A DNA stretch of 53,756 bases, from sequence record NZ_CP033797.1. One strand, 5' to 3'. The translations under genes and the position numbers were made by a program. Every line of letters begins with the position of its first letter. Position 1 is the first letter of the stretch. This DNA is from a plasmid. This document shows positions 11,026 to 23,169 of this stretch, piece after piece. The notes under the pieces were generated by a model. That model searched no databases. It had not been told where the DNA came from and was given only the letters and a program-made list of their open reading frames with translations.

Positions 11026-11166
11026 CCGCTCGATTACGCTGATTGCAGCTCAAGTCGGCTACGAAAGTCCTTCGGCGCTGTCTCGCGCATTTAGACGCAA
11101 GACGGGGTTGAGCCCTCGTGACTGGTTGAAAGATCTGGCGGGGGAAAATGATGGCAAAAAGGCCTA
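11026..11166 (+). pseudogene. 3' fragment of an AraC/XylS-family regulator gene truncated by IS26
   Basis: Reads ...VGYESPSALSRAFRRKTGLSPRDWLK... (second AraC HTH) starting exactly at the IS26 end. Confidence 0.65.
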
Positions 11167-11196
11167 AGGCATTACTGCCTTAAGCCATTGAAAAAA

Positions 11197-11715
11197 TTAT
11201 GCATTAATTTTACGTTTTTCCAGTTCAACCAGCGAATGGCCTGCCACAAATATCGAAACAGCAAGCAACCCTAAGTCTTTAAGCAGAAACTGACCTGGCG
11301 CAACGGAAATCGCCGGAAACCCTAAACTAGGCTCAATGACGCCCGGAGTGGAAAACATAAAGCTAAGGGTTGTGAAGAACAGGCCTGCAGACAGAGCGCC
11401 TCCTACCACGGATAGTTTGGGCGACAGCATGCGGCCTGCGATCAGAGTGCCGATCGAAATCTCTAGTATGCCGAGCAGGCTGGAGAACATGTCGACCGAA
11501 AAAATGCTATACACCCATCCCAAAAGCGGGCTGTTGCTCACCAGTGGAACCAGGCCCTCGGCCTCGTAGTGGGTAAATTTCATGCCGCCGAACCAGAAGT
11601 AAATAATAGCGAGAGCCAAGTACGCGCCATAGATACCTAGCCCCATAGTTTTGGTTCCAAGCGTTAAGTGGGCCTGTACGCTGGACTTCGAGTTTTCAAT
11701 GCCTATGGTTTTCAT
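11197..11715 (-). CDS. Inner-membrane protein, DUF417/DoxX-like (172 aa)
   Basis: Four predicted transmembrane segments; FWFGGMKF motif. Confidence 0.45.
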   Translation of the reverse strand: MKTIGIENSKSSVQAHLTLGTKTMGLGIYGAYLALAIIYFWFGGMKFTHYEAEGLVPLVSNSPLLGWVYSIFSVDMFSSLLGILEISIGTLIAGRMLSPKLSVVGGALSAGLFFTTLSFMFSTPGVIEPSLGFPAISVAPGQFLLKDLGLLAVSIFVAGHSLVELEKRKINA

Positions 11716-12445
11716 GTCTGAGCTTCCAGTAGTGAGTGAGAGTGTGTTGGCTGCCGAACGCCGTATGCGTTGGCGATGAGATTATTATGGCTGGCATCTC
11801 TAATCAAGAGGCATCAGAAAGTATTGATTTCAGTGCAGATCGTCTTGGGCGGTGCAATTCGCGATGAAGGGATCGCCGTGGAGAGCGATGAGTGCACTAT
11901 TTCGATAAAGGAGTCGTTTTACATAGGTCGATGAAGCGCGTTGCGGCATCGCCTACTGTCATTTCTCAAATCTGACTATGGGGCTTGGGGCGAAGGGCGG
12001 CACTGACTAGGCTTAGAACAGCTACCAACTAGCCGCGCGGCCGCGATGCACAAAGAATGGTAACTGAGCCGTGAGTGCGGTGGGCGCCCGCATTTATTTC
12101 CAAACCCTACAGATACATCGATCTTCGACTTCAACCGGGCAGATAGCTGTTGCAGCAAGCCTATCAATCGACTTTGACGTGTTAAAGAGGATAGGTTTTC
12201 CAGGGTTGGGGAACAGCATGCCCTGCAGAACGACACACGTCACTTTTGTTAAATTAATAAGCTAGCTACCTATTGGGCATAACCTTGCAATTTGCTTCAA
12301 TTTACGCACATGCACTTGCGACCTCAAAATGCAACGTAAGCCCCGAATATCTCCATTATTGTCGCCGCCAGCCTTAGTTACAGCTGCTATGATGAATGAG
12401 ATCGAAAACTGAAATCCCCCACTAGAATTGTTGACTGGAGTCAAA

Positions 12446-12820
12446 ATGAATAAAAAGCGGCCGGTTAATCTTGATATTCGAACCATTCAGCTTCCTCTCA
12501 CGGCGCTTACATCGATTCTGCACCGGATTTCAGGAATTATGCTCTTTATTTTTCTGGGACTGATACTGTATATGCTGAGCAAATCGTTGGAGTCAGAAAA
12601 GGGTTTTAATGAAGTCAAGGAGATTTTTTCTTCACCTTTCGGCAAAGTTAGTTTCTGGTTGGTATACTCTTCATTTATTTATCATCTCGTAGCCGGAATT
12701 CGACACCTAGTTATGGATGTGGGTGTTGGTCATACTTTGAAAGGCAGCAATCGCGCCTCTACTATTGTTTTAGTAGTGTCGGGTGTTTTAATGGTTGCTG
12801 GCGCCGTATGGATTTGGTAG
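12446..12820 (+). CDS. sdhC: Succinate dehydrogenase cytochrome b556 subunit SdhC, orphan (no sdhD/A/B follows)
   Basis: MNKKRPVNLDIRTIQLPLTALTSILHRISG...HLVAGIRHLVMD matches E. coli SdhC (MIRNVKKQRPVNLDLQTIRFPITAIASILHRVSG...HVVVGIRHMMMD). Confidence 0.8.
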   Translation: MNKKRPVNLDIRTIQLPLTALTSILHRISGIMLFIFLGLILYMLSKSLESEKGFNEVKEIFSSPFGKVSFWLVYSSFIYHLVAGIRHLVMDVGVGHTLKGSNRASTIVLVVSGVLMVAGAVWIW

Positions 12821-13172
12821 CTGTGGAGTCGTAATGCGTATTTACAAGGACTAAAAGCGTCCTTTAAAGCTAACTTACGAAAGTATTTATAATCGACGGT
12901 TCACGCTTAAACGGTTGAATCCTTTCGGGCTTCCGAATAGCTGTTAGCTGAAAGCTATCATGAGCTAAGTTTTCTGTGCATCATCAAATGTGTTAATGGG
13001 AGCGCCATAGTACTAGGTACAAATATGGCTCTAGGACAATGTTAGATGTTTTGGATTTTGAGGCGGATCGCTCTTATCGAAGATCGTCTAATTCGCTCTG
13101 AAGCGCAGGTTTTTTGAAACTATCACCTGGTTGGCACACTGTGCGAATCAACATCAGATATGAGAAAGCCAA

Positions 13173-13499
13173 TCAGGTGAACACTACCCTCGAGGGCTCA
13201 TCTGTCCAGTTAAAGCCTCGAGTCTTTCTGGGTGCGCAAAAGACAAGAAGGTTATATGGGAAAATTATGAGGCCTGGATACCATGCGTCATGGGCGTGCC
13301 GATGCTGTGAGTGACAGAGCGAGAAGCAAGTGAAAGTCCCTGAAGTAGGGGCGGGATGCGCCCGAGTGGCATTTTTTGTCTTAAGGTAGATCGCGTAGCT
13401 GTTCTTCAGAATAATCTTCAGAGCGTTGACGACAGCCATCGCTGTGCATTCCTCAAGAATAGAATGTGTCGGAAGGGTGGCGTCATTGGTGTTAGTCAT
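13173..13499 (-). pseudogene. Possible dps-like (ferritin-like DNA-protection) remnant, frameshifted
   Basis: N-terminus ...VNALKIILKNSYAIYLKTKNA resembles the Dps helix (LN.LLAD...LYLKTHNFHW); the rest of the frame is degenerate. Confidence 0.25.
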
Positions 13500-21082: not shown

Positions 21083-21783
21083 GCTGGCCTCGCGGGAATG
21101 TGGAGGCCACGCTGGACGGCCGGTCGAGCCAGCCCGCGTCCAAGCCATGCGCGGACGTTCGAAAAGCTGCTGAGGCCAAGGATGTCACCCGCAGCGTAGA
21201 ATTCCACCAGCGCATTCACCCAGCCGAGCGTCGCGATGTCCGCGATCGAATAGTCGTCGACGATCCAGTCGCGGCCTTCCAGCCGGCGATCCAGAATCCC
21301 CAGCAGACGCGTGGATTCGTCGATAAAGCGCTGTTGCGGCCGCTTGTCCTCATAGTCCTTGCCGCCAAATCGCAGGAAGAAGCCGAGCTGACCGAACATC
21401 GGCCCGATGGCCGACATCTGAAAGAACACCCACGCTAGGGTCTCGTAACGCTGGCCTGGTTCGGTGGAGATGAACTGACCCGTCTTGTCGGCCAGATAGA
21501 GGAGGATCGCACCGGATTCCCATAAGGCGATGGGTCTACCGTCAGGGCCAGCCGGATCGATGATCGCCGGTATGCGTCCGTTCGGGTTCAGCGACACGAA
21601 CGCCGGATCCTTCGACTCGTTGTTCGAGATGTCGATCAGGTGGGGCTCGTACGCCAGGCCAGTCTCCTCAAGCATGATCGAGACCTTGACGCCATTGGGC
21701 GTAGGGGCTGCGTAGAGTTGCAGGCGATCGGGATGAGATGCCGGCCAGCGCTGCGTGATCGGAAAGGACGAGAGGTCTGGCAT
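21079..21783 (-). CDS. Glutathione S-transferase (Nu-class, YghU/YfcG-like)
   Basis: ...LWESGAILLYLADKTG... GST N-terminal site; start overlaps corA (ATGA). Confidence 0.75.
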   Translation of the reverse strand: MPDLSSFPITQRWPASHPDRLQLYAAPTPNGVKVSIMLEETGLAYEPHLIDISNNESKDPAFVSLNPNGRIPAIIDPAGPDGRPIALWESGAILLYLADKTGQFISTEPGQRYETLAWVFFQMSAIGPMFGQLGFFLRFGGKDYEDKRPQQRFIDESTRLLGILDRRLEGRDWIVDDYSIADIATLGWVNALVEFYAAGDILGLSSFSNVRAWLGRGLARPAVQRGLHIPARPA

Positions 21784-21923
21784 AAATCTGCGATCCTGGT
21801 GTTGCGATGGCGACTGACTGGAACGAGCCGTCACTCTGAAGTAGGGTTCGATGACCGCGTCGCTGAACGACGCGGTCACGAAGATTGCTGACCGGATCGG
21901 CGCAGTGGCAACGGCAGTGAAGC

Positions 21924-22463
21924 CTATTCCGCCGCGGTCCCGGCCGCTGGCTGTACGTCGTCAACCTTTTGGCGCTTCGGAAGCACCCAGCCGGGACGGA
22001 CGAAGTGGCAGGTGTAGCCGCCCGGGCGCTTCTCCAGATAATCCTGGTGATCGGGCTCGGCCTCCCAGAACTCGCCGACCGGCTGGACCTCGGTCACCAC
22101 TTTGCCATCCCACAGCCCCGAGGCATCCACATCGGCGATCGTATCCTCGGCGACGCGCTTCTGCTCCTCGTCGACATAATAGATGCCCGACCGGTAGGAG
22201 AGCCCACGATCATTGCCCTGGCGGTTCAGCGTCGTCGGATCGTGGATCTGGAAGAAGAATTCCAGGATGTTCCGGTAGCTCGTCACTGTCGGGTCGAAGA
22301 CAATCTCGATCCCCTCGGCATGCGTGCCGTGATTACGATACGTGGCGTTCGGAATATCGCCGCCCGTGTAACCCACACGGGTCGAGATGATGCCGGGCCG
22401 CTTGCGGATCAGATCCTGCATGCCCCAGAAACATCCTCCTGCGAGAACAGCGCGCTGATGCAT
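21924..22463 (-). CDS. msrA: Peptide methionine sulfoxide reductase A
   Basis: [10 protein letters not shown] active site. Confidence 0.9.
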
Positions 22464-22464
22464 G

Positions 22465-22920
22465 TTAAGCCTCCTCTACTTGATCGAGATATTCACCGTA
22501 TCCCTCGGACTCCATCTCGTCGCGCGGGATGAAGCGAAGGGACGCTGAGTTGATGCAGTACCGCAGACCGCCGCGGTCGGAAGGACCATCGGGGAACACA
22601 TGGCCGAGATGACTGTCTGCGTGTACTGACCTGACCTCCGTCCGGACCATGCCGTGTGCGCTGTCCCGCACCTCGTTCACGTTTGCCGAAACGATCGGCT
22701 TGGTGAAGCTGGGCCAGCCAGTACCCGAATCGAACTTGTCCGTCGAAGCGAACAGTGGCTCTCCCGACACTATGTCGACGTAGATGCCAGGCTCCTTGTT
22801 GTCGTTGTACTCGCCCGTGAAGGGCCTTTCGGTGCCCGCCTCCTGGGTAATTCGGTGTTGCTCGGGAGTCAGGTGGTCGATTGCTGTCTGTGACTTTTCA
22901 AACTTCATTACAGTCTCCAA
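22465..22920 (-). CDS. msrB: Peptide methionine sulfoxide reductase B
   Basis: ...GTGWPSF... and ...HLGHVF... motifs; directly upstream of msrA. Confidence 0.9.
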
Positions 22921-23169
22921 TACTTATCTAGAGGGCCAGGCACGCTACCGCTAATTTTTTATGTCTCCTGATTTGCTCCTACAATGGTAGTGGGATGGCA
23001 AACGAGGTTTTACTAAGTGTTGGAAAATTAGAGATTTAAATTTCGCGTCTATTAGTTCTAGCGCAACTGAGTGGTTAAGCAAGTACGTAATCAGTAAATA
23101 TTAAAAAAATAACACAAAAGCACGATTATATAATACAGTGTCAGTGTTTTATGATAATCAACAACGCCT

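Follow-up and report, generated by a model that had tools for sequence, protein, structure and literature searches.

The pGSH8M-1 plasmids of Aeromonas caviae (PMC6851574) have been reported to carry a 'genomic island of sulfo-related reductase enzymes', presumed to be helpful in wastewater or under antiseptic treatment, and an oxidative-stress region adjoined by a gshR gene forms part of Tn6637 on the Acinetobacter bereziniae plasmid pAbe229-114 (PMC6863613). Here we analyze an island of this kind in the plasmid record NZ_CP033797.1, whose 53,756 nt, taken whole, we refer to as the window. The island DNA proper occupies positions 11027-23156 (12.13 kb, 15 intact genes), and its gene content matches that of the pGSH8M-1 and Tn6637 regions as described in those papers (a match of description, not of alignment), for which the same adaptive role was proposed. 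Judged by gene content and by its many plasmid copies, the island is already described and widespread, and not new. The window differs from the published copies in carrying an araC gene cut by the insertion sequence (IS) IS26, in its unusual IncX5-type host plasmid without resistance genes, and in a right-hand junction that is not found in PLSDB, and it has a natural sister plasmid from which the cargo has been deleted. With moderate confidence, we read the island as a glutathione-centred module that repairs oxidised proteins and provides tolerance to reactive chlorine, chlorine specificity being less certain than a general role in tolerance to oxidative or hypochlorite stress.

Several characterised or named systems resemble parts of this island. 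The msrB-msrA-yfcG-corA cluster of IncP-6 KPC plasmids and ISCR-associated arrays (PMC4785139, PMC9602987) consists of the four corresponding genes, arranged in matching order and strand, with the same overlap between corA and the glutathione S-transferase (GST) gene, and is ~90-91% identical to window positions 19770-22936 at the nucleotide level; the four-gene module is likewise seen in the annotation of pKPC2. However, this cluster represents a 3.2-kb sub-module only, to which the island adds eleven further genes. The Rcl system (RclR-RclABC) shares with the island an AraC-family regulator, best matching RclR and with cysteines at or near the two RclR cysteine positions, that adjoins a gene for a DUF417 protein, but the island has no RclA or RclB gene, and its regulator and DUF417 genes are convergent, whereas rclR is divergent from its operon. 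The action of RcrB in the RcrARB system of uropathogenic Escherichia coli, like Rcl a locus for resistance to reactive chlorine, is glutathione-dependent, and the island is rich in glutathione enzymes, yet it lacks RcrA and RcrR (no TetR or DUF1471 gene is present) and its DUF417 protein lacks Trp44 and Trp60. The transmissible stress-tolerance locus (tLST) consists of genes for heat-shock proteins and proteases, whereas redox enzymes are all that Pfam detects in the island, so that the two are set apart by description. PMC12603250 presents tLST as a mobile non-antibiotic stress-tolerance island that reportedly raises chlorine tolerance and spreads among ESKAPE-type bacteria. Finally, Barnum and Coates list the MsrA (WP_003464967) and MsrB (WP_003464965) proteins of the island among chlorite-dismutase-linked proteins. 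DNA of a cld-cupin-qacG2 cassette occurs on 10 PLSDB plasmids, five of which also carry the island, and in Pseudomonas plasmids from salad-leaf wash a class 1 integron with these chlorite dismutase, cupin, and qacG2 genes (positions 1391-4151 of copy L001) lies within ~5 kb of the intact regulator end. A paper on swimming-pool plasmids does not mention the island.

At the center of the proposed module are two methionine sulfoxide reductases and a set of candidate thiol-recycling enzymes. Both msrA (21924-22463, minus strand; Pfam PMSR, E 1e-56) and msrB (22465-22908, minus strand; Pfam SelR, E 1e-49) encode proteins with the expected domains and catalytic cysteine motifs (GCFWG and RYC[IV]NS, respectively). 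MsrB is 50% identical to E. coli MsrB and keeps RYCINS with the catalytic cysteine, while the cysteine of DSGCGWPSF, which we take to be the recycling residue, is replaced by threonine, and both CxxC pairs, presumably zinc binders, are gone, i.e., it is of the 1-Cys, zinc-less type. According to published work, MsrBs of the 1-Cys type are regenerated via glutathione and glutaredoxin, which fits the presence in the island of grxC (14466-14738, minus strand; Pfam Glutaredoxin, E 4e-23; CPFC motif), encoding glutaredoxin 3, of a gene for a Nu-class GST similar to the YfcG/YghU disulfide-bond oxidoreductases (21079-21783, minus strand; GST_N and GST_C domains), and of a CxxC protein (17001-17471, plus strand; WCQGC motif, no signal peptide), as well as that of gorA beside the Acinetobacter island. 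The best NCBIfam matches of the GST, PRK11752 and PRK13972, both fall under their cut-offs. The CxxC protein has no Pfam match, and its PDB sequence matches are 3eyt (E 1e-15), an uncharacterised protein, and 3lor (E 5e-11), deposited as a thiol-disulfide isomerase/thioredoxin, so that it probably has a thioredoxin fold; its gene adjoins the diverged clusters L003, L004, and L006 discussed below. On Acinetobacter pittii pAP2044-1, gorA (glutathione-disulfide reductase; L092 18021-19373) follows the island past IS fragments, matching the published Tn6637 layout.

Two genes at the left end, both missed in the first-pass annotation, suggest a tie to reactive chlorine. The 46 codons and stop at 11027-11167 (plus strand; HTH_AraC/HTH_18 hits) are the 3' remnant of an RclR-like AraC-family regulator of which only the helix-turn-helix tail is left, whereas the full 281-residue gene is intact in the three other copies inspected (L001, L002, and L090). 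This intact regulator has RclR as its best NCBIfam match over nearly its full length (E 1e-28; 100 bits against an equivalog cut-off of 400), scores RclR far above any other NCBIfam family, and shares 27% identity with E. coli RclR. Of its cysteines, Cys86 falls on RclR position 89 in the alignment and Cys24 close to the cysteine at RclR position 21, the two positions that we take to be the redox-sensing residues of RclR; the 46 C-terminal codons left in the window include neither. Next to this remnant, the DUF417 gene (11197-11715, minus strand; Pfam E 4e-31) encodes an inner-membrane protein of the RclC/RcrB family, with RclC as its best NCBIfam match (89 bits against an equivalog cut-off of 275) and 28% and 27% identity to RclC and RcrB, respectively. 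Lys43, Trp44, and Lys128 (and Trp60) are reported as essential in RcrB, and the island protein keeps both lysines, with Trp44 replaced by Phe and Trp60 by Leu. A 2026 preprint describes RcrB as quenching hypochlorous acid (HOCl) at the envelope in a glutathione-dependent manner. With these RclR-like and DUF417 parts, the hypochlorite reading is better supported than could be known when the tolerance cargo was first proposed.

Based on these components, the island would most likely act as a glutathione-centred defence and repair system against oxidants of sulfur amino acids, hypochlorite and chloramines being the likeliest. MsrA and the 1-Cys MsrB would together reduce both methionine-sulfoxide stereoisomers in cytoplasmic proteins, and glutaredoxin 3, the YfcG/YghU-like GST, and the CxxC protein would recycle sulfenic and glutathionylated intermediates at the expense of glutathione. 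The DUF417 protein would act at the envelope, like RcrB and RclC, while the quinone-oxidoreductase-like dehydrogenase, HbpS-like, DUF1330, and DUF427 proteins may handle secondary electrophiles. A molybdoenzyme would draw electrons from NAD(P)H via an FNR-like partner and, within the cytoplasm, reduce a small molecule or peptide oxidised at S or N. We propose no role for CorA, whose gene overlaps that of the GST and accompanies it in all versions examined. In the ancestral island, the RclR-like AraC activator would switch these genes on; since IS26 destroyed araC here, any expression in this plasmid must be constitutive or driven from elsewhere.

The molybdoenzyme is a single-domain protein of 200 residues without a signal peptide (15931-16533, minus strand; Oxidored_molyb, E 3e-36), and the gene for the FNR-like FAD/NAD(P)H oxidoreductase (15192-15938, minus strand; FAD_binding_6 and NAD_binding_1) overlaps it by 8 nt (ATGACTGA), i.e., the overlap noted at first sight is real and longer than the bare ATGA then given. 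Membership in the sulfite-oxidase (SUOX) fold is indicated by the Oxidored_molyb domain, a conserved cysteine, and a fold search that returned sulfite dehydrogenases, YedY, and sulfite oxidase with probability 1.0; no solved structure in that search exceeded 27% identity. This cysteine, Cys77, is invariant in 30 homologues and lies in an HCVTSWS stretch that aligns with RCVEAWS of MsrP; we take it to be the molybdenum ligand. The family comprises at least 8000 sequence clusters, and the partner, which has no iron-sulfur domain, matches an NCBIfam model of the Fre family.

The pair thus resembles MsrPQ in its sulfite-oxidase fold, in the cysteine within a YedY-like stretch, in its methionine-sulfoxide-repair context, and in that its partner is related to the flavin reductase Fre, which feeds MsrQ. 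It is nevertheless not the classical MsrPQ system, as had been noted in the first-pass annotation. The molybdoenzyme scores 35.6 bits with the MsrP hidden Markov model (HMM; cut-off 207), is 23% identical to MsrP over 146 residues, and has 200 residues instead of 334; its N-terminus (MVTRGFTGRGSGDQSDRIPPGQHLVEDF) has no twin-arginine motif with a following hydrophobic stretch, and so no signal for twin-arginine translocation; and, in place of the MsrQ haem-b membrane partner, the downstream gene encodes a soluble FNR-like flavoprotein. In an AlphaFold model (predicted local distance difference test score 77), Thermus sulfite dehydrogenase, YedY/MsrP, and chicken sulfite oxidase are about equally similar (TMq 0.58-0.68), so that, as modelled, the enzyme would be structurally as far from the sulfite dehydrogenases as from MsrP. 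Scores with the HMMs of the sulfite dehydrogenases SorA, SorT, and SoxC are 20-35 bits, under cut-offs of 420-600, and compared to SorAB, SorT, and SoxCD the island enzyme has neither a dimerisation domain nor a cytochrome gene, its partner being a flavoprotein.

Beyond the island, the two genes are direct neighbors with a shared orientation in 73 of 78 genome loci, ranging from Proteobacteria to Actinobacteria and Chloroflexi, and when the genes around the molybdoenzyme were clustered across 80 loci, only the FNR partner recurred, apart from a small Cys-rich protein in 14. This protein (~90 residues, two CxxC pairs) follows the pair, e.g., at positions 11333-11605 of L071; none of the 14 loci belongs to the island-like clusters, and the protein is absent from the island. 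Among 76 loci without the other genes of the island, four have a clear msrA and/or msrB homologue (68-79%) within 10 kb, one of these also having DUF417, and two more have a distant msrB match (54%) or only a 28% msrA match, respectively. An Acidobacteriaceae metagenome-assembled genome (MAG) has DUF417, msrB, msrA, molybdoenzyme, and FNR genes in one locus, and a Bradyrhizobium chromosome has genes for a thioredoxin, the molybdoenzyme, and FNR, with DUF417 and msrA further along. The Bradyrhizobium pair (L086 1-8200) also borders phage-defence-type genes (BrxC/BrxD, TerB, HEPN AbiU2, and HNH), a neighborhood that suggests a variable genomic region. Literature searches on YuiH, the SUOX fold, and similar terms returned nothing relevant to the pair. 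From its sequence relationships, the pair is an autonomous two-gene unit, widespread and uncharacterised, and neither an MsrP variant nor MsrPQ, and in its action it would correspond to a YedY-type reductase that is soluble and fed by NAD(P)H. Whether it represents a new class of soluble, NAD(P)H-driven molybdenum reductases for oxidised sulfur or nitrogen compounds, i.e., a cytoplasmic counterpart of MsrPQ, is doubtful; candidate substrates may then be free or peptide methionine sulfoxide and N-chloramines, and the recurrent linkage to msrA, msrB, and DUF417 would explain why the pair rides on the island.

The island is found on plasmids of several genera. Positions 11027-23156 are 100% identical to annotated plasmids that include Pseudomonas NZ_CP146345 and Klebsiella pCAV1947-173, and ≥80% of the 9.45-kb core (13501-22950) is present, at ~98-100% identity, on no fewer than 80 PLSDB plasmids, in hosts including Klebsiella, Raoultella, Aeromonas, Pseudomonas, and Acinetobacter. 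In all, 387 PLSDB records match the core, 61 of them at ≥99% and 40 at 95-99% identity, and the exact island proteins occur on at least 1000 contigs. Partial matches to the core, at 90-95%, come from about 227 further PLSDB plasmids, of which those examined carry the 3.2-kb msrB-msrA-yfcG(GST)-corA sub-module, including ~40-kb IncP-6 KPC plasmids. Wastewater, hospital drains, and washed produce are the sources of many carriers, and among non-antibiotic redox cargoes that travel with carbapenemase and other plasmids in bacteria of wastewater and hospital plumbing, the island is probably the commonest.

A donor search in 185,579 species genomes (one genome per species) found no exact donor, no molybdoenzyme relative above 91% identity, and best DNA matches of 80-88%, and points to environmental Alpha- and Gammaproteobacteria as the likely source of the core, with no narrower donor. 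The closest clusters (L003-L006) are in a Competibacteraceae MAG, a Sphingomonas sp., a Hyphomicrobiaceae MAG, and a further proteobacterial bin, and each has 7-11 island genes at 75-96% amino-acid identity (80-88% for DNA), partly rearranged; in Sphingomonas, a peroxiredoxin and a LysR regulator are also part of the cluster. Across these diverged versions, every gene including the hypotheticals has a ratio of nonsynonymous to synonymous substitution rates (dN/dS) of 0.05-0.28, with pooled values of 0.14-0.17 (~0.15). Such constraint indicates purifying selection on working genes, and together with the clusters themselves it bears out the view that this is a coherent gene set rather than random DNA. 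The island versions are also mosaics: the coding sequence of the Acinetobacter copy has no substitutions except for one nonsynonymous change in DUF1330 and a corA-GST patch. This patch (20114-21783) is a recombination patch, with a synonymous divergence (dS) of 0.22 relative to the Acinetobacter copy (L092), and in the IncP-6 version (L093) dS is 0 for msrA and 0.49 for the GST gene.

The backbone, which encodes a Rep3 initiator, a VirB-type transfer system, and a MobP relaxase, is that of a conjugative plasmid of IncX5 type. Because the two ends of the window adjoin in the sister plasmid, Enterobacter asburiae p2017-45-80_2 (NZ_CP109691), in which window positions 51678-53756 run straight into 1-12359 (L091 285-14723, 99.98% identity), the window probably represents a circular IncX5-type plasmid in full (53,756 bp). 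In agreement with the first-pass annotation, the island is free of predicted antibiotic-resistance genes in three identical copies that are annotated; none is predicted anywhere along the window in near-identical annotated records either, so that the island seems to be the only accessory cargo of the plasmid. The core has a G+C content (GC) of 58.8%, with 62-78% at third codon positions of its genes, against 40.8% and 44.3% for the backbone, i.e., the contrast originally described is clear. In contrast, the left 2.5 kb (11027-13500) has only 41-51% GC and is a patchwork including an orphan sdhC, and the region upstream of msrB (22909-23156) is AT-rich (32.5% GC). The span originally assigned to the island (11026-22950) therefore needs adjustment: 11026 is the last base of IS26, the left part is not high in GC, and the DNA continues to 23156, the right end of the DNA common to all island copies, where the matches in copy L090 and in many plasmids stop exactly. 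The DNA common to different contexts extends from ~186 bp upstream of araC to this position (~13.0 kb).

On the left, the boundary is set by IS26 (10207-11026, minus strand; transposase 10259-10963, a DDE_Tnp_IS240-type open reading frame annotated as IS26 in the sister plasmid), the 14-bp terminal repeats of which were read directly (GGCACTGTTGCAAA / TTTGCAACAGTGCC). On the right, the high-GC tract extends past the island to 25944 via ISPa60 (ISAs1 family) and then an ISPst3 fragment comprising istB and the 3' part of istA (together 23157-25944, minus strand; identified by Pfam and the annotation of copy L001). Pseudomonas plasmids match the window up to 25944, and Pseudomonas-type plasmids are the source from which both elements came along with the island. 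The IS-bounded segment ends on the right with another IS6-family element, distinct from IS26 (25945-26756, minus strand; DDE_Tnp_IS240, 231-residue transposase, 16-bp inverted repeats GGTTCTGTCGCATTAA), which interrupts the ISPst3 istA and whose junction is absent from PLSDB. The earlier suggestion that IS26 delivered the island does not hold, as IS26 cut the regulator here and three other copies checked keep it intact. A composite transposon was rejected since the left IS26 and the right IS6-family element are different and have other terminal repeats; the 8-mers flanking the two elements also differ (aattattg and gcggcgag), i.e., there is no target-site duplication. Cargo of a Tn3-family transposon was rejected as well: in L001 and L002 the terminal repeat of tnpA (GGGGTTGTACGCC...) ends ~200 bp before araC, which places the island outside that transposon, and no matching inverted repeat was found downstream of the island. 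A path in which IS26 inserted into tnpA and a deletion then extended into araC was dropped because the flank in pCAV1947-173 is incompatible with it. More generally, the ~13-kb island circulates widely among plasmids as an accessory unit repeatedly shuffled by IS elements, and it reached this IncX5-type plasmid with ISPa60 and the ISPst3 fragment. The sister plasmid, the only PLSDB record sharing the IS26/araC junction, lacks window 12360-27433, i.e., all the redox cargo except DUF417, and in it this 15 kb is replaced by a 287-bp miniature element (L091 14724-15009) with Tn3-family-type inverted repeats (GGGGTCCGCTTGGAAAAGGGAAAATAACCTACGCTAAG...). A repeat related to this element is present at window 29887-29944.

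Reading the island as a chlorine-tolerance module has to be weighed against other explanations and against several observations that count against it. Nothing in the cluster is specific to chlorine as opposed to peroxide, disulfide, or electrophile stress. The regulator and the DUF417 protein are only 27-28% identical to characterised proteins and far under the NCBIfam cut-offs, and RclC reportedly fails to complement an rcrB mutant. Co-location with cld is limited to a handful of plasmids, the distribution over habitats is anecdotal and confounded by the choice of plasmids for sequencing, and we found no experimental test of the island in the searchable literature. One alternative is a general redox and electrophile-stress module, not specific to chlorine, that would handle peroxides, quinones, aldehydes, and disulfide stress in soil or activated sludge. 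Msr, glutaredoxin, GST, quinone-oxidoreductase-like dehydrogenase, and HbpS-like proteins do act in general oxidative and electrophile stress, the Sphingomonas relative has its peroxiredoxin and LysR-type regulator in place of the RclR-like one, and the nearest relatives are soil and sludge bacteria. However, the plasmid-borne form has the RclR-like regulator, the DUF417 protein, and the link to cld-cupin cassettes, and methionine oxidation is the hallmark HOCl lesion, so that we consider a module of this purely general kind quite unlikely. A further proposal, in which the molybdoenzyme oxidises sulfite, CorA handles Mg, Co, or Ni, and the remaining genes are incidental to sulfur-oxyanion and metal homeostasis, draws on the fold that the enzyme shares with sulfite dehydrogenases, on the constant position of corA beside the GST gene, and on a sulfur-transport gene near the pair in Bradyrhizobium. 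It appears very improbable given that the enzyme has no dimerisation domain, haem or cytochrome partner, or export signal, that the stretch around its conserved cysteine resembles YedY/MsrP, that no other sulfur-oxidation genes are present, and that the constant NAD(P)H flavoprotein partner suggests reduction rather than oxidation.

The island could also be a hitch-hiking mosaic of environmental DNA, carried by IS activity without benefit here and silent or neutral since the activator was lost. The truncation of the regulator by IS26, with which induction of the island genes in this plasmid may have been lost, weighs both for this explanation and against a functional module, as do the persistence of the sister plasmid after it shed its cargo and a scan for promoters and terminators that did no better than on shuffled sequence, in which promoter-like sites were just as common as in the island. 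The patchwork left arm and the many different IS elements inserted in different copies point in the same direction. Against this, none of the 15 genes is disrupted and all match copies from other genera with 100% identity, the cluster is kept at ~98-100% identity across carrier genera and at least 80 plasmids, diverged versions show dN/dS of ~0.15, and the island is, judging from near-identical annotated records, the sole accessory cargo of a resistance-free plasmid; passive carriage is, in our assessment, fairly unlikely. We thus retain the oxidative- or hypochlorite-tolerance cargo proposed in the first-pass annotation as the reading with the best support, now with an RclR-like regulator, a DUF417 protein, and cld neighbors in its favor, while its specificity, the cut regulator, and the loss of the cargo from the sister plasmid limit how far that claim can be carried.

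Pfam, NCBIfam, and PDB sequence searches confirmed the identity of every gene named in the first-pass annotation, including those of the island not yet described. The orphan sdhC (12446-12820, plus strand; Pfam Sdh_cyt), encoding a cytochrome b556 subunit, lies in a low-GC patch (41.5%) and is followed by no sdhD, sdhA, or sdhB; its protein is identical in every copy examined, and it is probably swept-up passenger DNA. A gene for a conserved hypothetical protein of 88 residues (13681-13947, minus strand) has no Pfam or NCBIfam hit, is 70-87% conserved in L003, L005, and L006, and has a dN/dS of 0.20-0.28 in L003 and L006. The remaining genes, all on the minus strand, encode a DUF427 protein (14117-14398; PF04248, E 7e-27), a DUF1330 protein (17797-18090; Pfam E 5e-21), an HbpS/GlcG-like (DUF336) protein (18149-18580; PF03928, E 6e-34), a quinone-oxidoreductase-like medium-chain dehydrogenase/reductase (18653-19666; TIGR02817, 548 bits against a cut-off of 284), and the divalent cation channel CorA (20114-21082; Pfam CorA, E 2e-53), which has a YGMNF sequence with the GMN motif and scores 173.5 bits with TIGR00383, under the cut-off of 200.75. 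Conservation within the cluster is highest for the HbpS/GlcG-like gene (94-96% amino-acid identity, dN/dS 0.05-0.07), and the start of corA overlaps the GST stop.

Further features were observed around these genes. The gene-poor stretch after sdhC (12820-13680) is an IS landing site, with ISApu1 and ISApu2 inserted in several plasmids (L002 7954-11342), including several Klebsiella plasmids from Japan with the sample prefix WP3-. No RNA element, and in particular no molybdenum cofactor or Mg riboswitch, turned up when 10900-23300 was scanned with Rfam at E up to 1. The IS-bounded segment is flanked by two ParA-like genes (8470-9132 and 27456-28076) and by two related resolvase genes, one intact (9451-10116) and one a 5'-truncated remnant (~26757-26950), an arrangement suggesting that partition and resolution modules were fused or duplicated in the past.

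Should the island make its hosts more tolerant of chlorine disinfectants or neutrophil oxidants, its carrier plasmids could be co-selected by chlorination, which would be of relevance to infection control. With the island as the only apparent cargo of an IncX5-type plasmid and a natural sister lacking that cargo, the two plasmids provide a clean test bed for its function.

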